The notes: a model not told the origin generated them from the sequence alone. DNA of 64,000 bases from Candidatus Omnitrophota bacterium (GCA_020632535.1 JACKFJ010000002.1:120245-184244); one strand, 5' to 3'. Shown: positions 8,130 to 46,100, numbered from the stretch's first letter. Numbers and translations: made by a program.

Positions 8130-8200
8130 TAATTAATTTTTACGGCTCAAAGTTCCTTCGGAACTGATTCGCCTTAAAAAATTAATTATCACTCCTTGAT
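8118..8200. terminator. Perfect 24-bp palindromic stem (8118-8141 / 8177-8200) with a 35-nt loop holding an inner hairpin; a putative bidirectional terminator or RNA processing site overlapping the mutS stop codon
   Basis: ATCAAGGAGTGATAATTAATTTTT pairs perfectly with AAAAATTAATTATCACTCCTTGAT. The inner hairpin is AGTTC-CTTCG-GAACT (8151-8165). The mutS stop TGA (8127-8129) lies inside the left arm. No U-tract follows, so the terminator call is tentative. Confidence 0.4.
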
Positions 8201-8216
8201 ATAACAATTTAAATTT

Positions 8217-8341
8217 AAGAAGTAAGAACAAGTCCGAAAGCGAATTGAACGCAGCCCCGATTCTGGCCTCCTTAGGCAAATGCCTAAGGAGACATCCACC
8301 GGGGATCGTTCATTGAGATTGAGGACTTGTTCTTACTTCTT
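8217..8341. repeat. Nested inverted-repeat element between mutS and mutL; a structured RNA, regulatory leader of mutL, or MITE-like insertion
   Basis: The outer arms are a perfect 19-bp inverted repeat: AAGAAGTAAGAACAAGTCC (8217-8235) and GGACTTGTTCTTACTTCTT (8323-8341), with an 87-nt spacer. Inside is CCCCG (8255-8259) paired with CGGGG (8300-8304). Inside that is a 10-bp stem CTCCTTAGGC/GCCTAAGGAG (8268-8277 / 8282-8291) with loop AAAT. It ends 14 nt before the mutL RBS. Confidence 0.6.
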
Positions 8342-8365
8342 AGCATAACTACTAAAAGGAAATTT

Positions 8366-22100: not shown

Positions 22101-25100
22101 GAGTCAATATTTCAATTTCATTCTTAATTCCGCGTCGTGCTTGTTGCTGCTCTTCTAATTCCTTTTTACCTGCTTTTTTATTTGTACCATTCATAATGAC
22201 CTGTAAATCACTCCATCGCTGTTGCGCTTGATCAAGATCACTTTGAATTCCCATGAGAATATTTGCCGGAAGTTCTCGCTTAATAAAGAATGACATTTGT
22301 AGCGCGATTGATCGAAAAGCCGCGTGTTCTTTTTCCGTGATCAATGCCAATAGAGCATCCCATCTTTGATCTTCAGTCCCAGCAAGCATAAAAGCCACGG
22401 TCGCACGATCAAGTCGGTTAAGATCTTCATGATTTAATAAACGAACAAAACCTTGTTTTAATTGCCCGATTTGAGCCATTTTCTTTAACCAAATCACGCG
22501 AACATAATCTACCTTAGAATTCTTTTCTAACGTTTGTGCCAAAACAGCTTCCGCTTCGTCAAGTTTTTCTGTTTCCAACAACAATGAAAGCAAATTCTCA
22601 TAAAGCTCTTCCCACATTCCATTGAAAGTTGCGGCGGTTTGCAAGTATTGCATTCCCGCAGTATGCATATCTTCATCTTGTAAAGACCCTGCTTCGCTAA
22701 CCAAAATCAATCCGTATAAGCGGTGTGCTTGAGCGGCATCTTTCAAATTGTGTTTTAATACCGTTTCGGCGTATTGCTGACCTTGCTCAACTTGTCCTAA
22801 TTTCATCATGGCTCGCGCTTTATTTAAACCATATTTGAAATCTGAATTCCCACTCGTATTCTCTGCAAGTTCCAAATGTTTCAATGCTTCTGTATTTTGA
22901 TCAAGCGTTAAGTAACGAAGTCCCATTTGATAATAAGTATCGGCAATATATTTAGCATAACGTTGTTGTAGACCCGCAGACTCGATAAATGCCAGCCCCT
23001 TATTTACGACTTCAAAGAATAGATTTGTCGATTGAACGCCGGAAATCACAATGGCTAAATTGCTGTAAAGTTTAGCGATTAAATCATACGGCAAAAACTC
23101 ATTTCTAACTTTCTTCCCACGGCCTTGTTCAATAATCCAAAGAATGCCTTTTTCATATTGAGCTAAATGTTCCATAAAGCCATCAAAGCGGCCAAGTGTT
23201 GCTAAGAATTGGATTTGATTTCCGGTTAATACCGTAAATTCGATAGGCCATTGTTCATAGGATGTTTTCTTGAGTTGCTCTTCAATAACCCAAAGACCTA
23301 AATCCAAAGCTTCGACACCACCAACACCATTAAGTTCTTGAACAGTTTTCTCAAAAATTCCAAAATTAGAACTTTTTGTACCTAAAACGTCCATTGCGGC
23401 AACGCGTTTAGCACGCTCAAATAATTCAAGGGTTATTTTACTTTCGGCAATATTGATCGACTCAATACCTGATGAGGCAAGAATACTTTGTGATTTCTTT
23501 TGCCAAATATCCAAATAATAACCATACCGGCGAACATTCTCAGCCTCTAGTTTCTCATCCAAAAGTCTTAAGCTTGGGCTGTTAAGATTGTAGTAATCTT
23601 CTTGAAGATATTTTCCTAAATCAAAATATCCTCGATATTCACTATAAGGCGTCACGACAATCATTCCGTTGCGCTTTAACCATTCTCGTATCGAAGAAAG
23701 ATTAGTAACAAAATGCTCCATTAAATTCATCCCAGACTTTTGATACAAAACATCGAACCGACCGGCAAACTCCAAATCAAGACTTTGGTCATGACGAACT
23801 ATTGATTTATGAATAAAGATAATATTTCTTATCGTGGATTCTCCCGGCAAACGAAAAGCTAAATTAACTCTTCCCTGTTTTAACTGAGAAATCGCGATAT
23901 CTTCTAAACGCACGCCCATTTGCAACAATTCATGAATTAGGAAAATTTCAATGCCACCGTTCACAAAATAAGGAATAGCACCAAATCCGCTTTTTCTTTT
24001 GTCAGCAAAATATTCGCCCAGTCTTTGCTGCCGAACTTCACCTTCATCTAAATCATTAACCCGAGCACTCATTAAGGCGTCATATAGTTTTTCTCCCGAT
24101 ACAGGAACACGATCAACAACAACCATTGTTGAAAAATCTGTAACCAAAAGAGCCGTGATAATATCCGGGCCATTGCCTAATCCAACAACCCTAACAGGTC
24201 TTCTGTTTGGATTAACCAATTTGCGCACTTCTTGAAAATAAGCTGCTAAATTGGAAGATAAAAGTTGCCCTTGACCCAATAGAGCCGATGAGGCAGATTG
24301 CATGGCATCAAGTTTTCTTTGCCGAACTTGCGCAATGATTTCATACGCTTCTTCCTGCATATCGACAATGTGATAAAGATTTAGATCTTTAGCACTGATC
24401 ATTTTCTTTGCCAAAAGAACTGGGCGGAATAACTTTTCCTGCCACGGTAACCAAAAATCAGAACCCATGAGAATCAAAGGCATAACCTTATCCCCCTTGA
24501 GCTTCTGCGTCTGAATAAGCGTTATCGTTTGAAAGAAAACATCGAGAGCCGCATTGCCGCTTGGAAAGAAAACTATGCCTTGATCGCTAAAATTAATAAT
24601 GGCAGTCTTACGAATAAATTGATGCGTAACCTTAAGATAAATATCAGCTGATCCATTCTTAACACCGTTCTCATCACCAACATAAATGAGCTTTACATTA
24701 TTTTTCTTTGACGCGGCCCTAAATCCTTCTTCAACTGCTTTACCAATTCCCGTATGACTCATGTAAATAATCGAAACACCACGTGTTGCATAGTGTCGCG
24801 CCATTGCCTTAGCCTGTTGATAAGCATTTTGATACTCCGCGTTGAAATCAGCATCGTCGCCATGATAAGGAATATCCGTCCCCAGAATTGTTATTGCTGG
24901 ACCAATTCCACTCAATAATCCTTGCACAGAAAATAACTCACGAATAATATCATCAATCCTTAAAGCCTGCTTGAAGTGCGGATTCGCTTCAATTTGTTGA
25001 TCAATCAACCGAACGATACCATCAGCATCACGAATATCATTAAGCTGGATAAGGTCATCGACGCGATGCTTTAAATAACCTCTATTGTGCAAGTCACGCA

Positions 25101-28100
25101 TTAATTTCACAAAAGACGCGTAAAATGATTGATCAAAGATTAACGGTGTTTGAAGACTGATTACGCCTAAATCTTTAAGGACAAAAAACTCAAATGCTTC
25201 ATTAAGACTACCGAATCCACCCGGCATATAAATCGCGGCCTGACTTAACTCAGCAAAAGCTACCAAACGACTTAAGAAATATTTAAATTGAAGCAATGTT
25301 GAAATGTATGGATTTGCTTCTTTTTCATGCGCAAATTGTTCTAAAATAATTTTTAACCCAATTGAAATACCGTTTGCCTCCACAGCTCCTTTATTCGCAG
25401 ATAACATCGTCCCCGGTCCACCACCCGTGATAACAGCATATGAATGTTGTGCTAACAATGCGGCGATACGCTCAGCTGCCGGAGATTCAACACGCGCAGA
25501 ACCAAAAATATTGACACCACCCTTACCCGTAAAAACATAGTTCTCCAAATGTAAAAGCAGTTCTTTAACCGCCAAAGCAACAAAATCAGGACTCATACCG
25601 ATACGCGGCAAAGTAACTTGCTGTATGTCAGAACTTGCTCTTTTGATCGGTAATGTAAGAATTTTTGCGCTTTTGCCAGTAGAAACATCAGACAAAATCC
25701 GCAATTGAACATCAAAACGGTATTGATCATCGCGATTGGATAAAGAATTTACCTTCAAATGCGTCATATATCTTCGAAGCAAATCTTCGTTTCCAGCTAC
25801 GAATTTAGCATCAAATCCTAAAATCAAAATATATTGACTTGGCAATCCTTCACGAGCTTGTTCTTGAAACTCAATCATTTTTAATGCGTCACCATTTATT
25901 CCTATATGCACCGGATCGTGCTTATATTTCTCAATAGTCAACATGTTCCCTTCCCAGCCAAGAAAGAAACGATGCATCAAATCTCTTTCATACCTCACAA
26001 ACCAAAATGGGCGTTGTAATTCAGACGCTTCAATCGAGAATTCTTCATCTGTTGTTCTTGATGCAAATGTCGCAAAAACAAAACCTTTTCCTTGTTCAAT
26101 TTGCCAGCCTTCATATCTTTTTAAATTGATAATTTGCCGCATCAAAGGTGAATAATGATAGGCAACAGATTTGATATCATCGCCATGTAATAAAGCATTA
26201 CCCAACTCTTTATGTAACCAGCGATAAATCAAATATCCAATACTGCCGACGAAAAGCAATATCCCAATCGCCCAAAGACCCATTGTCGCGTTAATCAGCA
26301 GGGTTGTTCCAGCTATTGCATTCATCGAGAGAAGAAGAACACCCAAACCGATAAGCAGTTGCATAAAATATTTTGCTTTACTTAATCGTGGGAATCCAGA
26401 CATGTCAACACCGGCAGCCTCAAAAACTTGTGCAAAAACCCCAATAAACCGCGGCGTTCTCAAACCATCAGTTAAATTTTTTGATCCTCGATCTAGTACC
26501 AGCTTAAGTCCATTAATTTCATCAATATTCTGACCTCCTAGAATCATCAAAGATAAAACACTCTCCGGACTTAAAACTTGGAAATCTTTGAGAAACTTCC
26601 AGTCAATCAATTGAACATCGATGAGAAGCCCTTGCGATGAAAACCTCACAAGAATATTATGCAAATTAATATGACCGTGTAAAAACCAATCGCCATCCTG
26701 ATACCGCAAAACATGCTCAATCCGATGAAGAATCATATCTTTTTCGTTTTGTGTCAGCTTTTTCTTCTGATTCTCGACAATATCACCCAAAACTTGATAC
26801 CCATAAACACGCAAATCTAACTCATAATAATGAGTGGTATCATTAATTGCGAAGAATGTGGGAACAGCTCCGAAAAGATCTTGATCAATTAACTTTTGAA
26901 TTGTGGCGATTGTGGTGCGGGGTCCAATGAGTTTTTGAATAATGCGCCATTTTTGCTTAGGATGTTCAAAAACAGCCTGCTTCCGATCAAAAGATAAACT
27001 ATTCAAATCCATATTCTTATCGTGCCTTAATCCAGTAATACCTTTGACGGCTAAGTATTCACGAATCGCGGCCATTTGCTGATTCGTCCAAGGTGCTGTC
27101 ATAACCGGCGAGCTGACTTTTTGTCCTTCGACAATACTCAAAGACGTGCGATCTTTCTTGTGAACAAAAACTTTCGAAGGAACATTAAACAATTTTGCTA
27201 ACACACCCCGATACATAGCGGCGGGTCGATAAGCGCCATTTTCCCACTGTTCAATTATTCTGGCTAATGATTCACTTAAAATACGCTTTTGCTGCTCGCT
27301 TATTTGGTCGAACAGTGGACCTTGAATTATGTTAATCATCTGTCGTGCCATTTCATTCGGAGTCAAACCACGACCCATTCTTAACAATCGAATCTTATCT
27401 TTAATCGTGCCTTCCTTTATCAAGTGTTCTTTGGTCATGCCAGCTAAAAGCACATAAGCATCCACTCCGAGGGCAGCTGCTAAACGTGGCCAAATTGCAC
27501 CAGAATCATCAACAGGCTCACCTTTGCTCAATTTTAATATTCGCTTGAATGTTACTCCGGAAATTTCGGCCAACTGTAGAAGACTTAAGCCAGCAATATC
27601 GCGCAACTCTTGCAAACGAACTGGAAGCAATCGCTCTCTTTCTTGCAAACGTCGAATTACTGCTTGTTCTTTAATACTTTCAATAAATTCCCATTTTACT
27701 TGTTCTCGTTTTTTACCCTTACGCAAATACATTGGTTCGACACCCATCATTATGCTCCAGTCACGCAAAGACGATACATAACTTTCATCAATCGGCTGTG
27801 TGACAACCTTACTCCACTTAGCAAGTTGATTAACAAGAACTACGTCGGATCTACCCAGTGGCTGACCGATTTGATCCCATGTTAACGAACCATAAATGAT
27901 ATTATAAAGATCTTTCAAATATCGAATTCTTTGCGCGGCAGCAGCCATTGTTTCTATACCTTCGAGACCTGATAATCTGATAAGAACATGAACAATCTTT
28001 TTTTGTTTTTTAACTTCAAATTGTCCAATAAAATTTACAAGTGACTGCGGATGAATCATCTGAGTTCTTAATGGCATTGTTCCGCTGATTGCCCATTGAT

Positions 28101-31100
28101 ATTGTGTCGTCCAACGACCATCAACCTGAACAATTGCCGCGTGACTTATCAGTGGAAATCCTAACATTTCAAGCCATGCCAAAACTCGATTCACCTTTTG
28201 CGGTGAATTGATTGTGCCCTTTTCCTGCAGCCTTACCAAAATCTCTGTAGCAGTGATAGGTTTGTTTACAAAATATTCCATGCTTAATAGAAGTTTATAT
28301 ATTTTAAAGCCATCTTCTAAAATAAATTCTGAAAGAAATTCATCATCGACAATTGAGTTCCCTTCCATCACCGATTCATAACCAAATTTAACGAATTCCG
28401 CTAAATCAACATTTCCTGCTCTAGTCAAAGGAGTCAAATTTGGCAAATCGCGCAAATTGTGATCTCCGATACCATTCCAATTAAAAGTTTCAAACACTGA
28501 CGAAGAGGCTAAAGCAACGTGGAATATTTCGTCTTCGGTAGCTTCTAATAATTCTGCTAATCGTTGACGTCGTTTCATCGGAACATTTTGTGTTCCTCTG
28601 ATCCAATTTCCAAATTGTGTCGCAGTCACACCAAGATCGGTCGCCATAACATCTTTAATTCTCCCAATGTTTAATCGCAACAGGTCGATCCGCTCACCAT
28701 CCGTTGCTTGACGATCTAAAGCAGCTTTTCTGCTTAATCCGTCTGTGAGAAGACTTATAACAGCATCTTTCCCTTTGTGTCCGCGAGCTCTGGCAATTAA
28801 CGCTAACACTTTAGGATCTTTAATATTTCTAACATCGTCTTGTTTTGCATGAACAGTTGGAAATGGCTCAACAAATGCAACTTGATTAGAAATCGATGTT
28901 TCAGAAACTTTTTGTTTAGCAAGCCACTCAACAAGAATTCTTGCCTTTAATTCGTTATTCCCTCTTGCAAAAACATAAGCCATCGCATCGATATATTTTG
29001 CCGACGGGACCAGAAGATCTTCGCTCCATTTGATAACAATCTTTCTGGAAACTTTAAGCGCAGGATCTAATGCTATGTTGTTATAAGTTAAGCCTTCAAC
29101 CGTTCGATACAAATCTAAACGCTGACCGAATGTGCGCATAGCCAAAGCTTCTGTCCGCGATAATCCGGTCAACAGAACATAAACATCCTGCTCAAGAATT
29201 TTTGCAAGTTTTTGCCATAACATCGTGTCTTCGATAAAATAAATCTTGTCCGCGGTCTCTAATCGATAAATAATATCTTCATCCACATCCACCATCTTTG
29301 CCAAATCTTGACGAGTTAAATTACGGCTTCGTCGGAAGAACGCGAGACGCTGACCACGGCTCTCTTCTTGCTCTTGAACCGACACTATTTTAACTGGCAA
29401 CTTCGCGATCTCGTCACCAGCCCATAGCATAAATGACCCAACCCCTAAAAATGTTCCAATCTCTTTAATGGTACTTTCTTCGGGGAAGCTCACACCCCTT
29501 AACCATGTAGCAACACGCTGATTGATTGTTCTGCGAATTGCTGGACTCATAGCATCACCTTTATATAATTTCTTTACTCGCCATATAATCCTGATTCTCT
29601 GAGCAACAGCCTTGGCGACTTGCTGTAAAAACAATGAATTCGTACGCATCTTTTCCCAGTTATAAATAATCTCTTGATTGACAAAAATCCTCCTCCAGCT
29701 CTTCTGCATTTCTACTGGCCACGTTTCAAATCCATCAATATCCCATTGCGACTTCTCTAAACTTGGAACAAACCATTGCCCGTTCTCACTTACAAGAGTC
29801 AATCCAGCTATTTGCAACCATTCCAACCCTGCCTGAAGAGTGACTTTTGAATAAATAACGCTTGTGCGATATGGCAATTTAATCGCCTCATGTATTAACG
29901 CAATCATCCGCAATTTGATTTTGTCATTAAGCCAATTGGGCTGATAATCTTCAATCATTTTGTAAAACATAAGTAAAAAGTCATTGAGACTATTTGGTCG
30001 AATATATGTCATTTTCTTAATCTCGCTTAAAAGATGACGGAAAAGATCGTCCTGCTTTTGTTCGGCAAGAAAGATAAGAATTTTAGCTTCGGCTAATTTG
30101 ATCGATTGCCCACCGACCCCATTAGCGATCAAGCGAGGAATTTCAATCATAATCTGTTGCGATGTCCAGCGGCTCTTGCTAACAGCTAATTCACGATAAA
30201 CATAAAGTAATTCAGTAATAAACTTTAATAAGTACATTTCTTCATCAAACAACTGACCATTCAAAGTCGATTGATAAGCTCTCATCGTACTTCTATATTC
30301 TTTTCTCGCCTTCGCGTATAAATAATCCTTCAAAGCAATAGGGTCTCGAAGTTCTAATAAATCCTCAGCAATCTTTGTCAGCCGACCATTACCCTGTAGC
30401 ACAATTTCATCAATCGCTGAAGATGCGCTAACAACATCATCCGATGACTCCGCGCTAAGAACAAACCACTGTTCATTTTCTCTCACGAGAGCAAATCCAG
30501 TTCTTCCCAACCAACCTAAACCTACTTCAAGCATCCCTTTTGAAGAAATAACACTCGTACGATATGGCATTTTGATCGCTTCATGTATCAAGGCAATCAT
30601 CTGAGATTTGATTTTGCTATTGAGCCAATTTGGCTGATAGTCTTCAATCATTCCAAAAAACATAAGTAAAAAGTCATTAAGACTATTAGGCCGAGAATAT
30701 GTTATTTTTTTAATCTCGTTTAGAAGATGACGAAAAAGATCTCGCTGTTCTTGTTCCGCAAGAAAGATGAGGATTTTAGCTTCAGCTAATTGAATCGACT
30801 GCCCGCCGGTTCCGTTGATAATTAAGCGAGGAATCTCAATCATAATCTGTTGGGACGTCCAGCGACTCTTGTTCTCAGATAATTCACGATAAATATTAAG
30901 TAATTCCGTAACAAATTTTAATAAAAACGTCTCTTCGTCGATTGGTTGGCCATTTAAAGCAGACCGATAAGCTTTCTTTGCATTTTTATAAACTTTAGCG
31001 GCTTCTCTATTTAAATAATCCTTTAAAGCAACTAAATCCCTAACATCTTCTGGTTCCAACGCGTCAATGATAGCCTGTGGATATGGTTTACGCATTGGCG

Positions 31101-34100
31101 CGGCACTGATCACCCAATGTCTAATCTGTGCTTTGCTAACGTTTCCGATCGCAGCAAGCTCTTCAAATGTAAATCCTTTTTCTTTGCGCAAAAGATTAAA
31201 CCGTTCATTTTGTGAGCTTGCTTCTAATGCGACTACTCTCGGTTGATTCGTCAATAATGTAATGACATTGGTATCACGTCCCCGAGCAATAAACGCCAAA
31301 ACTTTTATATATTGTAATAAATTTAAGTCATAATTATGTTCGGCCAGTGATGGAAACGGCTCAATGCTGCTTAACTCCCCAGAAGGCAAAAGAACTTCTT
31401 GTTTACTAAATAGATCCTTGTCAGATGCGCCCAACTTTTTCTTTAAGCGTTGAATCATTTCCGGTGATGGGAGATTCTGATCCGAAATCCACATCCCAAC
31501 AATAGAAGGAGACACGTCAATGGCTTTGGCTAATTGACCTCTTGTTAATCCGCCAATTAACCGCAACAAATCAAGACGTTGGCCAAAAGTCCTCCGCACA
31601 AGAGCCTGCTCCAATGGCAATCCGGTAAGAATTTCACTAACCGAACGATGAAGAACTTTAGCTATTTTTCCCCACATCCATGGATTATCTAAAAAGTGCT
31701 GTGCTGATCTTTTTTCTAAACGATACAGCTGCATTTCGCCTAGTTCAGGAATAAGCGCTTCAACTTGTGGTCTTGTAAACCCAAGCAATTTACGATAATA
31801 TTCAACTCTCTGACCAATACTTGTTAAATTCTCATTCTCCTTCTCAATTGCCGAAGAACCAACTGAATGCTTTTGTGTGAAAGGAATAATTTTTCCGGAA
31901 TGATTATTCTTTTCCCATGCAAAGAATTCATCTTCACTCATAAATAATAATGCCAGCTTCTTTGTTGCTGTACGTTCAAAAACTCCTTTAATATTCTGCA
32001 TATAGGCATGCTGATCAGCTAATTTCAAATTACGATTAACAAAATCCGCAACTTCACTGCTCAATACAACAACCAATGTCATAAGATCAGCATTAAATTC
32101 TAAAGAAACAAGCGGATCTCTGCGATGATTGATGCGCATAATAAAATGAACTTTGTGCCCATATCTATGTCTCGGATATTCAACATATAAAGAAACTTCA
32201 CCTTCCGTATACCACTGCAACTCAATAATTCTCTTGACCGAATTAGTAAACTTACTAATACTCCAATCCCCAACATCAAAAGCCGTAACCCTAATACTAT
32301 TATTCGCGTATACTATTGTTCTTTGCCGAGCATTACGTGACTTACTTTCATTTTGCCATTTTTGCGATAAATTATGAAGCGCTAACCGCGCGTTGGATAT
32401 AGGTATCCCCGGAGTAAAATCTACGACTTCATCTACTTTCAAACTGCGAAGCTGCAAAACTGCGACATGACTGTTGATAGACATTTTATGTTGCATTTCA
32501 ATATAAACTTTTCGCAATAACCGCGCGTAATCAGAATAAAGAGCAATACCAAATCTTTCAAAAGCTACAAATAAATTCTCAATTTCCGCCAACTTATCTG
32601 TTAATCGTTTAGACGTGCGTAAACGATATGGCTGTGCTAAATTCTCAAACGCTTCCTCCGAAAGCACACCGGCGCCATAAGCAAAGAGAGCATATTCCAA
32701 AATATGTGTAAGAACTTTTAAATAAACAACCGCGGCTCTAACATTTTGGTCAAACAATGGCGCGCGCGATAATAACAATGTATTAATATACAATTGATCA
32801 TCTAATTCATCGTAAACAACAAGATTTCTTCCTAACTGCGCAAATTTAAAAAGTTTTAAGTCGCTAACAGAATTGCCTTGTTTAAGATGCAAAGCTCTCA
32901 TCGCTCGGGTGAGGAATTCCATCTGCCCTTGTTCATTGCTCTTCTGATATTTACGACCAAATGGCATTACCAATTCCCCGGGGAAAAGAACACGCGTATA
33001 AAGCGCGGATGAGGCGACTTGCGACACCTGTTTAAGAATTTTACGAACATCATTCTCTGAAATATCTGTAGAAAATTCCAACATTAACACAACTTTGACA
33101 AATTTCTTGTGCTGATTAATCGACACGACCTTAATTTCTTTAATATTAATCCGAGAATCAAGCTCCCACAGAGAACGTAAAAGCGCGTTCAAAGATCCAA
33201 CTCGATTTGATATCTTAACTTCAAAATCCATCAAAAGATTATTACTAGTGGATTCACCCACGCGAACATCGGGAATACGTCCGATTGCTTCTATCACCGT
33301 TGCTAAAACAGTATGATCCAGATCACCATCGAGAAAGAATCGCACTTTAAAACCGTCTTCGTAACTTGCTTCAAAAGCATGAATATCTAATTGATTGGCA
33401 GATAAAATAGACGTAATCGGCATCAAGATGCCCGGTCGGTCATAGGAACCACTTACCGTCAAAACCCATTCCTGAACATCTACAAACGGAGCTGTCGCAT
33501 TTGCTTGACGACGGGTCCATTGCCTAGAAAATTTACTCCGTAAACCTGAAACACTCAACTTTTCATGAATAACTTTCGCTTCAACAAGGCCTCTCCCAAC
33601 AGCTTCAAAGAAAAGTTTTAAATTTCTGTTATATTTAAACGGCAACTCCGGAAAGATTCCTAAAATGGATTCGAGGCGTAAATCTTTGCTTCGATCTCCA
33701 ACCCAACTAATAACTTTTTGTTCAACCAAAAGCATGCGTCCAGCAAACTCCAATATTTCACCTAAATCCTCAAGATTGATAAGGCCCAAAGCAAAAGCCA
33801 GATAAAGTTCTTCTAAAGTCTCATCTGTTTTAAGCATCAAGGTATCGCTCCACTCCTTGAGAACTCTAATTTTTTGTCCATTACGGAATCGATCAGCAGC
33901 TAGCTCTAAAGCAGCTTTACCGCTATCGCTTTGTCTTTTTCTTTTTTCATTATCCCAAAACACAATACGAGCCATGAGCTTCGCTCGAAGCGTTGTCGAA
34001 TTATGCATAATCTTTGACCAATTGATTACACCGAACTTGCGTGGGAAGTAAAGCGTATTTCCTGTTTTTAAAAATTTATTATCCCCAAAACGTTGCAAAG

Positions 34101-37100
34101 CCCCGGAAGCATGAACGCGACCTTCCTCAACAGACAATTCAACAAAATACGCACCGCTATATTCACCATTTAATCGATCAATACGCCAATATGCAGCCGC
34201 ATCCGCGGGAATCGCGCCATAATCAAGAATAAGAGGATAAATAAATTTTTCATTTTCACTAATCACGTTGCTTAAGCCAAATCCATAACGCGGCGAGTAT
34301 GAATGTACGGTTGGGTTGTAAATAAGTACCACAATTTTGCCATCAAAATACTGTCTCAAATGGACAAAATCATGCGCCAGATCATCAGTCGGAATAGAGT
34401 GCGGAAATTTATCAAATCTCTGATTTTTTAACGCGGGATCTTTATGTGCCGAAAATTCAAAATGCGCAATCCCCTGACCCATAATATAAATTTCATAGCT
34501 AAAACTGTTCATAACAATAATATCAAATGGCCGATTTTCATCATCACGCATGGGGAATTGCCAACCTTCATATCCAAACCGTCTTTGAAAATCAAGATCA
34601 TGATAGTACAAGCCCGGGGCGCTGCGCACTTGCTTGCGGCCAACATTATTCTTCGTCAAATTAGATAGTAAACTATTGATCTGTTCTAACACTTGCTCAT
34701 CTTCAACAACAATCATGATCCCAAATAAATCTTTAATTTCAGATAAAGTTAAATGACGGCGAGTTAATTTATTGGCTAAAGACGCATGAGTTTTTAAGCG
34801 GTTATGATAACTGACGCTCTCCTGAGAAACACCATTGTCTTTTAAATACTTGCGCATCTTACGCATAATATGCTCGATATATCTTTCCTGTTGCTTTTGC
34901 GTAAATCCATGTGTTAACTCACGAATAGCCGCGACAGTACGATGATATTCTTCGGGAGCAACTACTGCAAAAGCCGTATCTTGCAAAATACGCGCAATAC
35001 TGGGAATTCTAAAATAATTCGCTAAAGTTACATAAATATGAGTAGCTTTTCTGGCGTAATATTGCCTTTCTGTAATCGTCATAGCCACAGAACTTTCAAG
35101 TGTCGCCAACATTTCAGCGAAGCCAAATAATAATCCTTGCGAATCATTAATATTCATTACAAACCATGTCATCCATGTTGCCAAAGCCCGGCTATGCAAT
35201 AAGTTGCCATCCTTATCCATTCTCGGGAAATATATAAGTTTACGAATTTTATCAAAATGTTGGGCTTGCTCTGATAGATGATGTAACGAATAAGGGAATT
35301 TGATCACACTGTGAATATCAAATAACCACGCTGCGGCAAGAGTTTCTTCACGCACGGCAGTTGCTTTACTCGCACCCCATTCGTTTAATAAATCGACAAC
35401 CCTTTGCGTATATACAAACTTGCTCGCGGCAAGGTGCTGGCGCGCGAATTCTTTTGCTTCTTCGACAATAACGGAACTCGACGATTGATTTCGACGATCA
35501 ACTTCCTTATTAAGAATATTCTGTAAAGCAGTTAAATAATCTGCCCAATCTCTAGGATTTATCGTTCGTGAAAATTCTGGATATTCTTCATTATCACTTG
35601 CAACTTCATAAAGTGCGGCCGACATTCTAAAATCCGAAGAAACCCAATCTTGTCTTGTTGTAAATTCCGCCCAACGATTAAGAACAGGTTGATCCAAGTT
35701 TTGGAAAAATCCTGCCCAAAATAACTTAACCATATCAAACTGGCTTGGAAGTTTGATTTGCGGTGCATAATAACTCAACTTTTTGTTCGCTTGATTTATT
35801 GCTAAAAGCGCTAACTTAATCTGGGTTATTAGGCTTGAATTATTTGTTCTAAATCCACCTAATTCATTTTCAGCTTCCCGCGTTTCTTCCCGATCAGATA
35901 TCAATCCGCTGACCGTCAAATCCTGACCATGAAATGTCTCAAGATATAAGGCGTGATTATGCATAAGCGCGATTTGACGCGCCACCTGCGCCCCGAAGTA
36001 TAAAAATAATTCCTGCGTAGTACGAATAACAGGCTCGCCAATTGACTGCAGCGCGCGCGACAAATAATGAATCAATACTTCTAAATACGGATCGTTTTCT
36101 GCAATTTGTAAAATCTTGGATAAACGATACGGCGTGTGAGTTAAATTAAAAACTAATACAGGAGGATTATCACTATCCCATCCTTGCTCGCGAATCGAAT
36201 CAAAGCGACCATTAGCATGATTTGGCAAAGTTTTTAAATCCCGATAACCAAGATTACGCATAAACGCCCGACGTTCTTTTTGGGTAAGCATATTCCAAGA
36301 ACGCCCAGATAAACGTTCATTTCTTAAAACTAAACCTTCATAATCACGTCCCCCCAAGCTCTTTTTATATGACAAATCTTCCTCATATTCATTTTGACCA
36401 GAACCCTTGACGCCAACCCAGAATAATTTATTACCAATTAAATGCAAATAATATGCCTGACGACCATTAGCCACAAATCGATACATATTATTAATAAATT
36501 CTTGACGAGCCCGATAATCAACAAACATCACCTGAACAGGAATTCCAGCCTTCAATTTCTTTGCCGCCATCGCAACAGTTGCAATCTTAAAGGAAGTTAT
36601 ATTGTCTATAAATTGCGTTCCACCTATCAACTCTAATGCTTCACGATCAACACCAACAAGCGGACCAACCTGCTCATTTTTTTCTGTCAAAATTTGATGA
36701 AATACTGGCCGTAAGGAACGATCCCAATACAAAAGCATCTTTAATTCTTTATTAAACAATTTTTCTAAAACAATGTACTCTTTTACACCTATATAAGCTG
36801 CTAGATATGAATTAGCTTTATTTAACAAATTATTCCGGAAATGAATTTGCGGGGTAATATGATCCGTAACTTCATCTGGCACGAGTAAAGCAATAAGATT
36901 TTGCGCGAGATCTTCAAGGGCGATAAGGTAAGAATTAAAATTGGATTGTTTATTTGTTGCGAGGAGGATCCAAGGCTGACCATCAACTTCGGTCAAAACT
37001 GCAAAACCGCTTGTCAACGGACCCGCACGCAAATGTCCTGCGGCAATTGTTTCCTGTAACAATTGCAATCTTTGTCTTTGACCAATTCTCGTCAAAAATT

Positions 37101-40100
37101 CATAAACTTCTTTCATGGCAACACTATCCTCATATCTCATGACCCACGGCGAAGCATCCAATTTACCACCATGAATCAATTGCTTGGCTTCATTCACAAC
37201 GGCCGCGATAGCAAAACCTGCACGCGGCAAGGCATGTTCTTTAATCGGGCTAGAACTTTGATTCTGACTCATATCATCATCCTGACCCATTTGTTTTTGT
37301 ACCGCTTCAATTGTGTTATTTAACTGCCACTTTGTCTCAACTTGTTGCGGCGAAACTAATGAATAAAAACCACTCCCATTCCATCGTTTTTGCTTATATG
37401 TGCTTTGTAAAATATGATTCAATACCGGTCGCGCGTCGCGACCATTAGAACCCATAAGTCCAATCACCTTAACAAGCCGTTCTTGCGCCTGATAGGAATG
37501 TTCATTCTGTAATTCAGCAATAATAAGAGATAAAGCAATCGAGCCGTTGAGAGCAAGAGCACGGCTTAACCAAGCGCGTTCAATTTCGGAAGATTCCGCA
37601 CGAAGGAAGAATGCTAACACTGCTTTTTGTACATCCTCATTACCTGATGCTAAAACTTTAGAAACATTGCGCAAGAGATCTTCTTGCCACAAAATATCTT
37701 GTGTTTCTTTTAATGTGTTAACTGAATAATTAGTATCTTGAATCTCGCTCCTAATTGAATCTATTTCCTTCATGAATTGAATTTGTTCTCTGACTTCAAT
37801 AATTCTGCTGTAATGTTGTAAAGTTTTTAGCAAAAATTCTGTCTGGTTCTGTAGCGCAACACTCTCTAGAGATTTAGCCCCTAATATACTCGCGATAATT
37901 GCAAAAAGTTCTTGTCCCGGATGCAAGTAAGATTCACTAACACTTGTAGACGCGACAGTGTCAATACTCAGATTCTTATTTGCGGCAAAAATGCCAGTAG
38001 CGTTTGGTTTTATTTCTGGCGCAGGTTGTGGATGAGGCTGTTGATCAAACTGTGGCTTAGGCTGCTTTGGTTGTGGAACAGGTTGATTCTCCAGCTTTTC
38101 GAGTTCATTTTCAAAATGCTTAATCCAGAGAGGAAGATCTTTCTTAATTTGAGGATATTTCACGGCAAGTCCTACACTATTTAAAATAGTACCCAAAACA
38201 CGCAATGTTTCAATAACTATAATCTGGAGCCTTTGATTTTGTTCCTGAGTTTCAAATTGAAGCTGCGCGCTAAAATAATCATAAAAGAACTGCTCAAGCG
38301 CGAAAACTATGTCTGCCATCAAATGCGCGTCACTTCTCACGGCTTCACTATGAATGAAAATAACGCCACGCGGCTGACCAAGAAATCCATCTGAAACATA
38401 CAATGAATGATTCAACACCGAAGGATGCTCAAGCGGCAAATTAAATAATAGTCGCAAGTTATTGCGTATAGCAACTTGAAATCTTGAACTCAACACAATC
38501 TCACGTTCAACAGGGTTAAGATTTACAACGATAATTTGAAATAATTTGACAAGTCTTCTTGGATCAACAACAACTGTTTTATTTTCATCGATCGTGGAAT
38601 CTTTCGCGGCAAAACCAATAATAGCACCAAGAAAATCTCGTCGCGTAATCGCGCTGGAAGCGACAGGATATTGTGCAATAGCAGAATTCGCGTCAATTGT
38701 AATTTTGCTGACTTCAACCTGACCCGAGACAAATACCTGATAACGCAAAGGCTCTGTCTTTGTTGCATCGCGCCAAAAGACAAGAACCCGATCTCCGTCG
38801 ACTTGAATATTAATTTTATTGGACAAAGTAACAGCACTAGGTTCATCCCAACGATGATTTCTTAAAACCGCAGCCGGCCTAATAAGGCGCACCGTACTAT
38901 CCACTTTATTAATTTCAAATTCGGCGGACCACAATCCATCTTCTTCCCAAATACGAATATCAAACGCTCCATGCCGCAACCAATCAAATTGTGTAAACAA
39001 ACCACTTTGCTGGTCATTCTTGTATCTGGAATCGATGCTATATACTGCATTTGGAGCAATATATTTATAAACCATCCGCATCAAACCATAATTTCTTGTA
39101 TTGTGTATTTCAACCATCGAAAATGAATTTTGCCGTGCAAAATTAACTAAATATGCAAATATCGTACGACCCATGCCCTGTAAATTATAACTATAAGAAG
39201 TCGCACTAAAAGCAATATAAAGTACGTCAATTTGATCTTCTACAAGACTCAACACCAGATTGCTGTCTGTAATCACGTTCCCATTAAGCCAGAGGCCAAA
39301 ACTTACTTCCTGTGAATCATCCTTTTTATAAACAGCATCCAGATTCTGTTTAAGAGTAAATGGCTGGCCATTAACAATGTTAACCAATTTAATTTTTTGC
39401 GGTAGAATGTCTTCGTGCCAATTTCGCTGAATCGGAGATGAAGCACGAGTCTTACCTTGTTTGTCTTCAACCACCTTAATCATGATACGTTCAAAATTTG
39501 AACGAATTAATCCACGAGCCGCAATTTTATTAGCATTAATATCACCCTCGTAAGAAATATACGAAACACCGACTCTCTCAGCTAACCCCTTGAGTAACCA
39601 TTGCGCTACGACCAACCGACCCGTCGACTTCCAAGTTTCACCCCCCAATAGACGCTCAACCCGGCCTAAAATCATTTCATGAGATGGAAAAGCCGTAGCA
39701 TAATTTACTGCCTGCCCCCAGATTGAAATTCCACTGCCAAAAAGCATATAAAAATTTGTATTAGTTTCTCCCTCATGATTAAACCAGACGTCAAAGGTGC
39801 GAACGCCATAAACTCCAAATTCATTTAATTTTTCGCTTAAAAATTGACCCTCAGAAGTCTGTTCAAGATTAAGTTCAACTGAACTCATTAAAGGATTCTT
39901 TGTAATTACAAAAATATCGATATCTTCGCCATAAGGCATTTGCGTCTCAGCTGGATAACTTGACCAAAATTCAACTAAACTGCCACCAATCGTGATATTT
40001 TGAATTTCAATATCTTGGAAATGCCGCTGCAAAATAATTGGTAAATATTCTTGTAAAATGATAAGAACGTGTAGCAAATGATTTCTTTTAATCTCATGAA

Positions 40101-43100
40101 CTGACTGCCAAACATAATGACCAGTTTTTAAATGTCTTACCAAATCTTCAGAAGATAAAATTTTCTCATCTGATAATTGTGCTGTCATCAAATTTATGGC
40201 TTGATAAATATCTGGCACCATTATCATTTTTGCTTCTTCAAAAGTAATAGAAAAACCCTTACCCGCAGCCGCGCTGGAAGCGACAGGATATTGTGAAATC
40301 GCTGTCGGCACATAAATCACGATTTCCTGAACATTATCCTCCGAAAGATAAACCTGATAATTAAGGGGCTTTTTACCACGAGGATTACGCCAATCCACAA
40401 GAAGAACGTCACCCTTAATCTGAATAATAATGCGTTTTAAAAGACGATCCGCAATCGAATTTGTCTCCCAACGATTATTGGCGTAGATTGCACTCGGCCG
40501 AGCAAGCACCACCTGATTATCTTCTTTATTAATATAAAAATTACCAGACCATACTCCATGCACGTCGTCAATAATACGAACATCAAGAATTCCTTGTCGC
40601 AACCAATCCTTCTCGGCAAATAAATATTGACGAACTTGGGATTTACGCTGCCTTACATGATATTTAGCATCCGGAGCAATATGCTTATAAACCATATGCA
40701 TCAATCCATAATTTTTTGTATTGTATATCGAAAGGTGTAAAACTCCGTGCTGACGGGCAAAATCAACAAGATAGGCAAGTATGGTACGACCCATGCCTTG
40801 CAAGTTATGCTGATAGGATACTCTTCCAAGATAAATCTCCGTCACGGCAATGAGCTCTGGCTTAAGCTGTATGACCAAGAGGCTTCCCATAATCTCTTTC
40901 CCATTTACGACAATACGATAATGGACCTCCTGTAAATTTTCCCGACTAAATAAATCAAATTGCTTCAGTGTAAATAGCTTTTGATTTGCGACATTGGTCA
41001 GAACAATTTCGTGTGGCAAAATAGATTCATGCCAGCTTCTTGGAACTAGTGCGGAAGAGGCAGTTATGATTGAAGATGAGCTTCTCGCCAAGTTGGCAAT
41101 CGCAGGAAGAATAATATAATGCCCACCTTTGCCCATATCGCCTAATATCAAAGCCTTCTCTGTAAAATACCCGTCAGAATAACTTTTGACTCTGGTCGCG
41201 CCTGTAGCATTTTTTACAACACGATAAAGATGAATATCACTTTCTGATCCCACCGCATAATAAACACCCACTAATTTAAGATAGACATTTAATCCTTGTT
41301 GGCCAAATACCAAAAGATCTCTCTTTGCTACTTCCGCCTTAACCGCTTGATATCGCTGCGCATCCTGCCACTGGCCAATATTAAAGACCATCAAGTCATG
41401 CCACTTTAATTTCATGAGAAAAACGCGAGCCTGAGCGTGAGTAATATTAAATATCTCGGACAATTGTGTGATGCTATAAAATGGAATAACTTTTGCGGTT
41501 GTCTTGCCGGCTGTCTGCGCAACTTTTGAAATCCTGTTAAAATGTGCGAACGGTTCTTGAATATAAAAGCGCCCATCTCGTCTTAATTCTGTTATCTTTT
41601 TAACTAAGCGTTCACGAGAAGCAAGCGGAAGCTCAACCATCAGTTGACCCAAACGCAATTCAGTGGCAATAGCCGCTAAATATGGTTCGGCAACCTGTTC
41701 AACCATAACATGAAGATCATTGTCAAGAATTGTGCGCATCCATTCACGAAATTCATAAAATTCTTGAACTAAAACCGCAAATTCTTCAATTTGATTCGCC
41801 GCGAGCAATTCGAGCACCTGCTTGCCATAAATAATTCTTTGCTCAAGATCAATTAATTTGTCTTCAACATAAGCCAACAAATGCTGCACTTGTTGCTGCG
41901 TCATAGCATCGGTCAACGCGCTGGAAGCAGTCTTTCTTCCCATCAAACTATGTAATTCGCGAGGAAGCAATTTACCAAACGCGGCATCTCCGGGAAGAAC
42001 AATTTTCACACTCGGCAAGAAAGGTTGTTGTCTACCTTGAAAGATTGCGGTAATCTTTAAAATTTCTTCAACCGTTGGCGTTTGAATAACTTCAATCTTG
42101 TAACTTTCGCCTATATCATTACGAAACTCAAATGGCATGAAGCCTCTTCTAAACGGCATACGGCTTTCAACATACTTTTGCAATGGTAAATACTGAGGCG
42201 CTGTTACTTCACCGCGTCCGCCACTATTTTCCACATTGACAGCTTCGCGAATCGCCTGAACAAAAATCTGCAAAGCCTGTTGATCAGCATACAATTGACG
42301 CGTGACATTATCTTCTAATTCAATTTCAATCGAAGCAAATATGCCAACAATGTCCCTTTCACTAAGTCCGCTTATAACAGCGCCATATGTTAATGCATAA
42401 GCAATTTCCATTTGTGTTGCAACAAACAAATAATTTGATTGTTCCGATGCTTTAGGATCAAAATCAATCACATGCTTGCCATCAAACAAGCCAGCAAAGC
42501 GAGCATTAGTGTGCCCCATAAAATTATTCAAATCTCTAACCGGACTATAATCATCGGTCAAATCTGATAATTTTGCCTGAAAGACACGATTATCCCATCC
42601 GCTATTCGCATGCATCAAAAGCGTAATTGCAGAATGAATTTTATTTTGTGCCAAAAGGCCGTAGTACTGAGTCTGTATGAGAAGCAATGCCGACTTATAT
42701 TTGCGAACCATTTCATCTTGGCTCATCATTCCCTGCAAATTATCAGTCAGATAAGCGAAGACTTCGATATCTGTTTCATATCTGACCTCGCCGGTCTGTT
42801 CATTAGCCTGCACATTGGTTATGCGCCCAAAAGAATACTTTGCAATGGCTTTGATTCCTGAATATTCGGCATCAAATCCGTCACGGCCCGTAATTCCCCT
42901 GCTAGATCGATCAAAATATTTACTAATAACAAATCGTGGACGATACGTCGCATCCGCATTGGTTGGCTTAGGTAATAAATGAACAAACTTATACGTTCCA
43001 AATTGAAAATCCATAGATTGTAGGAACAAATCAATTCCATTTTGTAACGACGATTCAGTAAAGAATTGATTCACGAAAGCGTCAATCAATCTTTTCGCGT

Positions 43101-46100
43101 TTACTTCCGATTGATGCGCTCCAACATATGCCGCCAAACGTATCGCCATATTAAAGGCCATCCCTTGACCACGTAACCGTTGTCTCACATCAATAAGCCA
43201 TATATAAGGCATTGCTAAATTACGCGCTTTTTGAGCATATGCCGGATTTTCCATATTAGACAAAAGCAAATTTAAGGCCTTTTCCAAAACAACATGTGAA
43301 CCAAGTTCAACAGAATTCAAAGGCGATATTTGTGTTATCCTAAAATTGCTCAAATTAATATATTCTGGTCGTGTCTCGGCAATCATTCTCCGCACACCTA
43401 ATTCTGAATTGTCTAAAACCATAATCTTAGAAACTAAGTCAAGAATTTCATCAGAAACATCGTAATTATTGCGCTTCTTAATCCTTTGCAAAACAAGTTT
43501 AACAATAAAGCGTGGATCTTTTTTGTTTAAGATATATGTTAAAAGTCCTATGACTAAACTTTCGGCGTCTGCTTGATAATTCACAAGAGCACTTTCTAAA
43601 GAAAGGTATTCATAAGGGTTGCTTACGTTGTAGGGTATCCCGTGTATCTTGTCCGCCGGTTTATAATGTTGCTGTGTGTACATATATTCTTCCCACAAAT
43701 CTTTGATTTCAGAATCATTAGCTTTTAATCGCATTAAAGCAATCTTTGCGTGACCGACAACATAATTGTAACTAGCAAGAAGAATGCCTAATTTAGGACC
43801 AAATCTTCCTTCGTGAAGCATATAAATAATCGTCAGCGCGACATTGATGCCCACAAGCAAAGCCCCCAAAACAACCACATATGCTGCTCCATTACTAATA
43901 CTAATAAGCAAAATAGGTAGGACAATAAAAACAGATGCACTATATGCAACTCGCACCCAAGAAAACACCGATGTCAATGTTGCTGAAAAGACCGCTTTGC
44001 TTCTTAATGTGTTTTGAATCACTCCTTGACCAAATTGATCGCGGTAAATTCGCTTGATTGAATTAATATCAATTTTAATTATTTTTCCCTCATCTGTCTG
44101 AATCATAACCCCGCTGGAGGCGGATGAATTTTCTTTATTTTGTAAATCAAGCGCGTCTTGAACACGCCAAAGGGCTGCGCTCAACCGGAGATTAAACCAC
44201 TTTCTTTGTAATAAAGTTTGCTCTGGATTTTCTTGAGCATATTGCTTAATTAATTCTGCGGATTGATGCTTAATGGCAAAACCATTTTCTTCAATAACTT
44301 TTGCTATTAAAATCGCCGCGGCATAGCTAATCTTTGAATAATTACGATGCGCGACAAAACTATCATTACTAAGAACCAAGCCGCGAACGGCAACGTCAAT
44401 AATACTTTGATAATATTCCGGTGAACCGACTTTTATACCCAAGATTTGCCATGCACGCTCAATCGAATTCTCTTGCGTCGCGAATATTAATGCATTCTCA
44501 ACCGCGAGCATAATTAATGCTTGCTTTATACTTCTTGTCTGTTGCAACTGATCTCTAGAGATGCTGGTTTCTGGTCGATAATTTAGATTAATTATTTTAT
44601 AGTCAATTTCGCCTACAATATCTAAATTGACTGCAAAGCGAGTATCTTCCGAGTGAATAAAAACAATAACATCGATATCATGCGGTGTCGTTCCTGCCGC
44701 CACAGAACCCAAGGCACTGCCAAACAAATATGCCGATTCAATGCCTTTTAAGCGATACCCTTTTGCTTTTGAGGTGATATTTGTATTAATGATGCCTGCC
44801 AGATCAGCCAAAGATATGCGGCGACCAGAAGGTGTATTGATTTCCTCAATGTGTTTAAGCGCGCTAGAAGCAAATGACGAATCAAGAACTTTAAGTTGTT
44901 GATAGAGTGATTCTTCAGCTGCCTCAAAAACTTCCCTTGCCGAAAGATATCCATAAACTTCCACCACAAAAGTCGGATCGATACGCTTAACAGTTCTAAC
45001 AGCCTCGACAACCGACATGTTCTCAACCGCTGAAATTTTTTCCCATGTTCGGTTAACAGAGTAGAAAAGCGCCCAGAGAAAATATATTTTCACACCTTGG
45101 TTTTCTTTAGATAAAACATTAACAAAGCTTAAATCATACGGAATAATCTTTGTTTCGAGATAGTCATGGATCACTCCACCGACTTGACGTCCACCTTCGA
45201 TTTCTCTTCCAAAAATATGACGACTTACAAAAGCAGTATCTCTTGATAAAACATTGCTGATCATATTATGGATGACGTCGCTAACCTTAACCACGACTCC
45301 CGTTTGTCCAAGCTCAATTAAACCAGCTTTATACGCCAACAAATTGCTTTGGCGGCTTGCTTCAGCCAGTGTAGATAATCGCGTCTTGATAGCACGCGGG
45401 AATACTGGCAAATTAAAATCATTTTCAACACGAACCCAGAATAAATCACGATCTTTAATTCTTGTCAGAACTTGGACATACTGCATAACCAAATCGATAT
45501 CCAAAGGCATACCAATGCTACTTCTTAAATCCACCAATTGACGACGCAACTCTGCCGTAACAGCACGACGCATGCGTTTTGTAATGTGCAACTTAGAAGA
45601 ATAGTCAAGGCGCAGTTGATGCATATCTTGATAAGCCAAAAATCCAGATTTTAAATATAAAAAGTATAAAATCGAATCTTCTCGAACATCATGCAAGAAT
45701 GCAGCTGCAATAATTTCAGGATTCTTAATACCAAACCAATTACCAACAATCAAAACAACCCCAAGAATATGTACCAAATAATCGGACTTCACTTCATCCT
45801 TGCGAATTTGACCAATATGATGAATTCGAGCAATATTAAATAAACCCTGTATAAATTTAACTTGCTGATTTGAATCTAAGCCAATCAAAGAACCTTGTAA
45901 CCCAAATAAATCATACGGACCAACCGGGAATTCACCTTCCACATTGGCCATCAATTCTTGAATTTGTTCCTCAAATGTCATACCGGCAGATAATGCAAAT
46001 TCTTTATTTTGTCGTTCAGCGATATGGACAAATGAATCTAAAGCGGATCGTTTTTCTTGCATAATTGAGTAGATTTTATATAAAACCGCACCCGCAATTA

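Follow-up and report, generated by a model that had tools for sequence, protein, structure and literature searches.

Introduction

RelA/SpoT homologue (RSH) enzymes have been catalogued in detail. The described proteins closest to the locus reported here are the long RSH RelA of Escherichia coli (PDB 5iqr, 5kpv), which has a dead HD domain and a C-terminal ACT/RRM domain, and the hydrolases of the Mesh1/HDDC3 and bacterial small alarmone hydrolase (SAH) type, together with the HD domain of SpoT (3nqw, 3nr1, 5vxa, 7qps). Also related are the toxSAS proteins (CapRel, FaRel2) and Tas1, short and single-domain, whose RSH-fold synthetase domain serves chemistry other than (p)ppGpp synthesis. Omnitrophota, in turn, are known for giant genes, whose products exceed 10,000 amino acids (aa) and combine tiled, unrelated enzyme Pfam domains with transmembrane (TM) segments (West-Roberts et al., bioRxiv 10.1101/2023.11.21.568195; bioRxiv 10.64898/2026.06.07.730766). 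Here, we analyse a 64,000-nucleotide stretch of DNA from a Candidatus Omnitrophota bacterium (GCA_020632535.1 JACKFJ010000002.1:120245-184244; hereafter the window), most of which is occupied by one minus-strand open reading frame (ORF) of 17,932 aa, and we describe a RelA-like long RSH module and a separate Mesh1/SpoT-type HD module embedded in this giant ORF.

The RSH module resembles E. coli RelA in its domain order throughout, and RelA is its best PDB match, whether the search is made with the single sequence or with a profile. It differs from RelA in being part of a far longer polypeptide, in eight substitutions of the synthetase pocket, in an insertion that replaces the EXDD region, in insertions within the TGS domain, in the absence of the cysteines of the zinc-finger domain (ZFD) and in a second ACT domain. 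The HD module shares with Mesh1, SAH and SpoT the H-x-GQ-x-RK, Y-x-x-H, HD and ED motifs and a downstream D...N, and differs from the Mesh1/SAH proteins by an insertion of about 70 aa, by preceding TM-like segments, by its place within a giant protein and by similarity too low for detection with Pfam. The ORF as a whole, with its length, its Omnitrophota origin, its many distinct Pfam domains and its TM segments, matches the Omnitrophota giants known as 'multi-enzyme metabolic cluster' proteins (bioRxiv 10.64898/2026.06.07.730766). Neither of the two papers on such proteins mentions RelA/SpoT, ppGpp, AceK modules or a recurrent junction motif (bioRxiv 10.64898/2026.06.07.730766; 10.1101/2023.11.21.568195).

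Our preferred reading, held with moderate confidence, is that the RSH module is a complete long RSH without hydrolase function that would serve as a non-canonical sensor or a regulatory pseudoenzyme, the HD domain being a module independent of it.

Results

A complete RelA-like long RSH within a giant ORF

The original prediction, made by a model from the DNA alone, placed an alarmone synthetase with an ACT domain at positions 33025-35280 and an RSH-type HD hydrolase domain about 10 kb away, and took them for the split and rearranged halves of one RSH protein. The five peptides it quoted are real: each occurs once, on the minus strand, and all five lie in the ORF at 10156-63954, which puts the synthetase-like, ACT and HD parts in one polypeptide as claimed. 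More specifically, the peptide NRLKTHASLANKL is found at aa 9718 (window 34765-34803) and DLFGIMIVVED at aa 9742, the synthetase-like motifs spanning aa 9718-9752; the ACT motif DRPGILMPITSIL is at aa 10172; and HILGVV (aa 6062) and AAAFLHDVRED (aa 6083) belong to HD motifs that span aa 6062-6093. The predicted coordinates do fall on the RSH module but are slightly truncated relative to its real span, 33016-35472 (Table 1).

Homology to RelA/SpoT is well supported. The NCBIfam model TIGR00691 (spoT_relA) matches the module with an E-value of 1.6e-13, E. coli RelA (5iqr) is matched by the single sequence at E 3e-7, and a profile built from seven embedded modules matches the same structure at E 8.8e-24. 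This seven-member profile aligns with Bacillus subtilis Rel over residues 106-552, through the TGS domain, and with the ACT domain of RelA over residues 655-735; its positions 632-760 are also matched by aspartokinases with tandem ACT domains. Scores against the curated models were mixed. ACT_4 scored 29.2 bits against a gathering cut-off of 27, confirming a genuine ACT domain, and TIGR00691 lent support at the E-value above, although its 49.9 bits stay below the curated cut-off of 499. For RelA_SpoT (PF04607), the alignment is confined to the first half of the profile (positions 2-58 of 113) and its 26.8 bits narrowly miss the cut-off of 27. The HD segment had no Pfam match. A phmmer search of the PDB with the synthetase-like (SYNTH) and TGS segment alone returned no match.

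Alignment with E. coli RelA and SpoT is colinear over the entire module. The C-terminal region follows that of a long RSH except for the extra ACT domain and the missing ZFD cysteines: the 'CCxPIPGD' segment of RelA/SpoT falls in an alignment gap, in line with a depletion of cysteine throughout the giant ORF. A structural model was computed with AlphaFold2 (AF2) from an alignment of 59 sequences (pLDDT 84.8, pTM 0.83), the single sequence having given an unusable model (pLDDT 35). In it, the N-terminal region is a complete helical HD fold (pLDDT >88), the beta-strands of the TGS domain are present with a low-pLDDT insert at module residues 388-406, and two beta-alpha-beta-beta-alpha-beta units form the tandem ACT. 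The top Foldseek matches of the model are full-length SpoT (7qpr), ribosome-bound RelA (5kpv/5iqr) and Rel (6yxa), at E-values of about 1e-14. No second RSH or HD copy was detected elsewhere in the giant ORF by a custom hidden Markov model (HMM) and self-BLAST. From its alignment, we consider the module to be a whole, colinear long-RSH paralogue and not half of a split enzyme.

Predicted loss of hydrolysis and a remodelled synthetase pocket

The HDxxED motif of hydrolase-competent RSHs reads FDxxSV in the module, with H72, D73, E76 and D77 of SpoT corresponding to F9545, D9546, S9549 and V9550, and the D139/N143 pair of the KLADRLHN helix is replaced by E9614/T9618. Loss of HDxxED is common to all embedded relatives examined. 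With both motifs changed, the module's own hydrolase domain is predicted to be dead, as in RelA.

The synthetase pocket was compared column by column between 52 canonical RSHs and the embedded modules, using RelA numbering. The window module keeps R9719 (R252), K9721 (K254), S9725 (S258), K9729 (K262) and D9742 (D275), that is the residues for ATP and Mg expected of an active (p)ppGpp synthetase, as well as Y9795 (Y319) and H9831 (H354), all of them shared with E. coli RelA. Only three columns, those of R9719, K9721 and D9742, are invariant in all 59 sequences (7 embedded and 52 canonical). At eight other positions, which include the catalytic Glu and the acceptor site, the module is substituted: N9718 (G251N), M9747 (R280M), R9791 (K315R), F9793 (N317F), Q9799 (H323Q), D9811 (E335D, the catalytic Glu), I9813 (Q337I) and M9815 (R339M). 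Seven of these positions are conserved in 47 or more of the 52 canonical RSHs, and at the eighth, G251, 43 of them have Gly. R280 is the adenine-stacking Arg, and Met takes its place in all nine modules of the window's clade; the E335 column reads D/D/D/D/E/E/S/Q/S across that clade, and the Q337 and R339 columns are hydrophobic in the embedded modules. In the AF2 model, the EXDD/RXKD (G-loop) region is replaced by a low-confidence insertion at module residues 277-297. In RelA, G251E abolishes and H354Y reduces synthesis (PMC4154780); the related module of contig L083, described below, has Tyr at the H354 position.

We conclude from these columns that the ATP/Mg half-site is under strong selection while the acceptor and catalytic half is non-canonical. 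Because most of the near-invariant synthetase residues are lost, canonical (p)ppGpp synthesis by the module is unlikely; ATP binding is plausible. What had been called an alarmone synthetase therefore keeps the homology and the ATP/Mg residues that the name implies, but eight near-invariant residues are substituted and its activity is doubtful. As for the catalytic acidic residues, D275 is retained and E335 has become Asp, so that the degenerate active site named beforehand as evidence against the prediction is in large part what the pocket presents.

A separate Mesh1/SpoT-type hydrolase module

The HD motifs belong to a different module, M7, in which three TM-like segments (aa ~5909-5960) precede the Mesh1/SpoT-type HD domain. 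No Pfam model matched this segment. Its assignment relies on TIGR00691 (E 0.0017), on Mesh1 (3nqw; E 0.006 with the single sequence and 1.5e-5 with a two-sequence profile) and on a custom HMM of canonical RSH HD domains (20 bits, compared with -0.3 bits on the reversed giant protein), which together bear out the claim of a separate RSH-type HD domain. All PDB matches of the two-sequence profile are RSH-type HD proteins, and the profile reciprocally matches the N-terminal HD of canonical RSHs. The TIGR00691, Mesh1 and custom HMM matches all meet in aa 6028-6096, a stretch that preserves H-x-GQ-x-RK, YLVH, HD and ED.

The catalytic residues of the core are H6046, R6051, K6052, H6062, H6088-D6089, E6092-D6093, D6226 and N6230, the last two assigned through a weak local alignment in which the match of 'VVVKVSDVIHNM' to 'KLADRLHNM' is weakly supported. 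The insertion of about 70 aa lies between ED and the D...N helix. All of these residues are identical in the L083 homologue with the exception of K6052, which is Arg there. The whole HD module is 37% identical to that homologue, and the conservation extends to the downstream S-D...N. Both in similarity and in metal-ligand and catalytic residues, the domain agrees with the Mesh1/SAH type, and on this basis aa 6028-6240 are best taken as an independent small hydrolase module of the Mesh1/SpoT type. Since all metal-binding and catalytic residues are intact, it is plausibly an active pyrophosphohydrolase.

Recurrence in other giant proteins

An exhaustive HMMER search for the RSH module among 1.8 billion representatives yielded 141 hits. 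The best matches are other very long proteins (1,400-5,800 aa) containing the RSH module at full length; ordinary RSHs, about 700 aa long, make up the remainder. Neither the RSH module nor the HD module found a homologue in word-indexed searches, and scanning the GTDB species genomes with the RSH module likewise gave no hit. A metagenome scan was seeded with a two-member alignment, the seven-member alignment being too divergent as a seed. Homologous modules are present in independent assemblies from NCBI, JGI, Logan and ENA. The RSH module thus recurs, at full length, within other long Omnitrophota proteins.

The closest relative is on the metagenomic contig Ga0163144_10000536 (L083), where the HD module lies directly upstream of the RSH module (L083 5799-9500, plus strand; ORF aa 1939-3180). 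In the window, the two are separated by nine junction motifs and eight modules (~3,100 aa). Module order is permuted between the two proteins, the GT5 module and M5 being swapped. Direct adjacency in L083 indicates that the HD and RSH modules are evolutionarily associated, an arrangement that may be likened to the division of labour between RelA and SpoT or between small alarmone synthetases (SASs) and SAHs.

Junction motifs at the module boundaries

Modules of the giant protein are separated by a short motif, A-S-S-A-[ILV], from aa 3743 to aa 16771 (window 13640-52680, minus strand). Its strict form, [AS]SS[AS], occurs at 24 sites against 1.3 expected. A repeat at the DNA level was considered as the source of the motif and rejected, as all six Ser and all four Ala codons are used; this mixture of synonymous codons argues for selection at the peptide level.

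Motifs of the A-S-S-A-[ILV] type also flank the RSH module in L083 (19 sites) and in the relatives P0001 and P0002/P0142 (22 sites in P0142 against 1.1 expected). In a more distant lineage of this giant-protein family (P0006, P0007 and P0008), ASSA is absent and GAR[ALT] flanks the RSH-like module on both sides, with 7, 3 and 7 sites against 0.4, 0.14 and 0.4 expected. The junction motifs are therefore lineage-specific. Of the homology-block ends, 62% have a junction no more than 30 aa away, the random figure being 12%, and the junctions are also the points at which module order changes between proteins. The inter-motif segments resemble free-standing proteins in size, as illustrated by the RSH module (819 aa, RelA having 744).

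A recurrent motif at module boundaries, as a processed polyprotein would have, is thus present, and A-S-S-A-[ILV] and GAR[ALT] are candidate polyprotein processing sites. We know of no processing site with the sequence A-S-S-A-[ILV]. MARTX toxins and viral polyproteins likewise consist of protein-sized modules separated by short recurrent motifs. In contrast to them, the giant protein has no identified protease domain, and its junctions are candidate sites only. Pfam tiling of the giant detected no peptidase, only alpha/beta-hydrolase folds, and neither SecA, C39 peptidase nor dockerin.

Other features of the giant ORF and its surroundings

Pfam tiling reveals numerous enzyme-like modules interspersed with extensive Pfam-dark stretches: GT5/GT1 (glycogen-synthase-like), Pol-beta-type nucleotidyltransferase, GNAT-like, RSH, LOG, TPR, AceK and alpha/beta-hydrolases, as well as several XRE-type helix-turn-helix (HTH) arrays. 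Two XRE-HTH regions, aa 10708-11017 and aa 11528-11880, are 30-34% identical to each other. E. coli AceK, for comparison with the full-length module listed in Table 1, has about 578 aa. According to a 2026 preprint, the glyoxylate shunt is present in none of 176 complete Omnitrophota genomes examined. Modules other than M3 that are common to the window giant and P0142 are 25-30% identical, and Pfam hints for M3 itself are weak and of TIM-barrel type only (TMP-TENI, Pantoate_transf). The conserved C-terminal domain, for which no Pfam match was found, may be a family-defining terminal element.

The giant ORF encodes two cysteines in 17,932 residues (aa 4562 and aa 14356), and the L083 ORF (6,489 aa, L083 1-19470) encodes none. 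Many secreted bacterial proteins are poor in cysteine, and its near absence from both proteins is consistent with unfolded export or an oxidising location.

The DNA of the window has 39% GC, an even base composition and a GC skew that is negative throughout. mutL ends two bases before the stop codon of the giant ORF, and the neighbouring mutS shares 83% identity with its counterpart in a Candidatus Omnitrophota metagenome-assembled genome. An exact look-up of this MutS returned no match. No related giant gene was found at any of 80 mutS loci (14 of them titled Omnitrophota or Omnitrophica), the synteny search having given a single weak match, to an alpha/beta-hydrolase region.

Table 1. Positions of the RSH and HD modules, their boundaries and other features of the window.
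Feature	Position in window	Strand	Residues in giant ORF	Remarks
RelA-like long-RSH module	33016..35472	minus	aa 9495-10313 (819 aa)	Colinear with E. coli RelA and SpoT
Degenerate (pseudo) HD domain of RSH module	34885..35472	minus	aa 9495-9690	
SYNTH-like (RelA_SpoT) domain	34345..34884	minus	aa 9691-9870	Active site remodelled
TGS-like beta-grasp domain	34030..34344	minus	aa 9871-9975	With insertions; aligns to RelA/SpoT TGS
Helical and ZFD-equivalent region	33505..34029	minus	aa 9976-10150	No conserved zinc-finger Cys
Tandem ACT	33016..33486	minus	ACT1 aa 10157-10232; ACT2 aa 10240-10313	
Junction motif SSSS(V)	35473..35484	minus	aa 9491-9494	N-terminal boundary of RSH module
Junction motif ASSA(L)	33004..33015	minus	aa 10314-10317	C-terminal boundary of RSH module
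HD module M7	44872..46311	minus	aa 5882-6361	Flanked by junction motifs at aa 5878 and 6362
HD hydrolase core	45235..45873	minus	aa 6028-6240	Catalytic set intact
Further junction motif examples	44860-44871; 46312-46323	minus		
Giant ORF	10156..63954	minus		Modular 'multi-enzyme' Omnitrophota giant protein (Pfam tiling)
AceK (isocitrate dehydrogenase kinase/phosphatase) module	16012-17793	minus	aa 15388-15981 (594 aa)	Full-length; Pfam E 7e-70, 3e-59
Internal duplication	29749-31044	minus	aa 10970-11171 and aa 11201-11402	65-77% identity; straddles junction at aa 11177
GNAT-like duplicate modules	38632-41064	minus	aa 7631-7901 and aa 8169-8441	46% identity
Module M3	51352-52143	minus	aa 3938-4201	60% identity to P0142; most conserved shared module
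Conserved C-terminal domain	10159-10980	minus	aa 17660-17932	30-39% identity to termini of P0001, P0002, P0142
mutS (852 aa) and mutL (608 aa)	5571-10153	plus		Directly 3' of giant gene, convergent

Discussion

Under our preferred reading, the RSH module would bind ATP/Mg, or a related nucleotide, at the retained ATP-triphosphate/Mg2+ half-site (R-x-K...S...K and the D275 equivalent), and would bind small ligands via its TGS and ACT domains. It would act as a non-canonical sensor or regulatory pseudoenzyme, either inside the giant protein or after release. Like RelA, it would hydrolyse no alarmone, and it would probably make no (p)ppGpp, in a pocket where the adenine-stacking Arg is an invariant Met, the catalytic Glu an Asp, and the acceptor (GDP/GTP) residues are lost.

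Several observations weigh against a pseudoenzyme. R252, K254, S258, K262, D275 and H354 are strictly conserved in about 24 very divergent embedded modules, and the window's clade still has an acidic residue, Asp, at the catalytic Glu position; both the conserved residues and the Asp at E335 would fit a module that still carries out some phosphotransfer. That the module is linked to an intact hydrolase of alarmone type is a further hint, in this case of a nucleotide product. In addition, the alignment used for AF2 included canonical RSHs, which biases the model towards the RSH fold.

The leading alternative, possible though less probable in our judgement, is that the module is an active, neofunctionalised pyrophosphokinase transferring pyrophosphate from ATP to another acceptor, such as adenine nucleotides (the case of Tas1) or the tRNA 3' end (that of CapRel/FaRel2), with the HD module degrading the product. 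The invariance of the ATP-phosphate and Mg ligands in all embedded modules is in its favour, as are the acidic nature of position E335 (Asp or Glu) in P0001-P0004, L083 and the window, the intact HD module directly adjacent in L083, and new conserved family motifs (DxxGxM, YEGYQ, NYxxY, AHW), which point to purifying selection on the pocket. However, P0006-P0009, P0018 and P0022 have Ser or Gln in place of the catalytic Glu, the adenine-stacking Arg is Met clade-wide, Q337 and R339 are hydrophobic, and the G-loop region has given way to the low-confidence insertion. The comparison with toxSAS is also strained: toxSAS and Tas1 retain the canonical catalytic residues, whereas the RSH module is long, with TGS and ACT domains, and its pocket is degenerate. 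Structural matches to this group are weak (7ztb, CapRel, E 2e-3; 6ox6, E 0.08). Membership in a defence system of the toxSAS/CapRel type was considered and rejected, the PADLOC match to candidate PDC-S33 being weak (E 8e-6, 76 residues) and the architecture different.

A more far-reaching scenario, which we advance as speculative and think unlikely, is that the giant ORF is a polyprotein cut at the lineage-specific motifs into about 27 products, among them a non-synthesising RelA-like sensor and an active Mesh1-like hydrolase, that serve predatory Omnitrophota as a prey-silencing effector set. The RelA-like product would then keep its ribosome-, tRNA- and ligand-sensing domains and not (p)ppGpp synthesis. 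If so, the stringent response of the prey would be silenced, and the AceK, LOG and GlgA-like modules would silence its central metabolism.

That a single RSH was split and its hydrolase half moved by about 10 kb within the same polypeptide, as originally proposed, is highly improbable, and we rejected it. The split is mimicked by the HMM of canonical HD domains, whose match at aa 6028-6096 is limited to the N-terminal, catalytic half and whose match in the RSH module is limited to the C-terminal half (aa 9581-9679, 30.7 bits), and the adjacency of the two modules in L083 could be taken in the same sense. Nevertheless, each has its own HD halves and its own junction boundaries, with eight other modules between them. 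In the RSH module, 'AAAWLFDI' aligns to 'AALLHDV', 'AAWL' being conserved family-wide, and the HD fold is modelled as complete; the HD module has its own C-terminal half, with the downstream S-D...N helix and about 130 further residues conserved with L083. The RSH module is accordingly complete, with a degenerate HD of its own, and the second HD is a different, Mesh1-like module.

Chance resemblance, or an assembly or annotation artefact, can be dismissed as having a negligible probability: the marginal RelA_SpoT score and the missing Pfam match of the HD might suggest it, but an ORF of 53.8 kb at 39% GC cannot stay open by chance, profile E-values reach 1e-23, the reversed-sequence control scores -0.3 bits, and homologous modules occur in independent assemblies.

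Cleavage-point information for giant proteins is lacking according to West-Roberts et al. (bioRxiv 10.1101/2023.11.21.568195), and the junction motifs provide concrete candidate cleavage points for those of Omnitrophota. With the boundaries they mark, a giant ORF can be divided computationally into units of the size of single proteins, suited to structure prediction and expression.

Neither of the Omnitrophota giant-protein papers mentions a giant-embedded long RSH whose two catalytic sites are altered while its ATP/Mg half-site is strictly conserved. We would class the system as a RelA-like long RSH, fixed as a module of Omnitrophota giant proteins, which has lost hydrolysis and most of the canonical determinants of a synthetase. 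Its remodelled sites, together with the conserved ATP/Mg half-site, suggest either a pseudoenzyme sensor or a new RSH chemistry, paired with a stand-alone Mesh1-like module.

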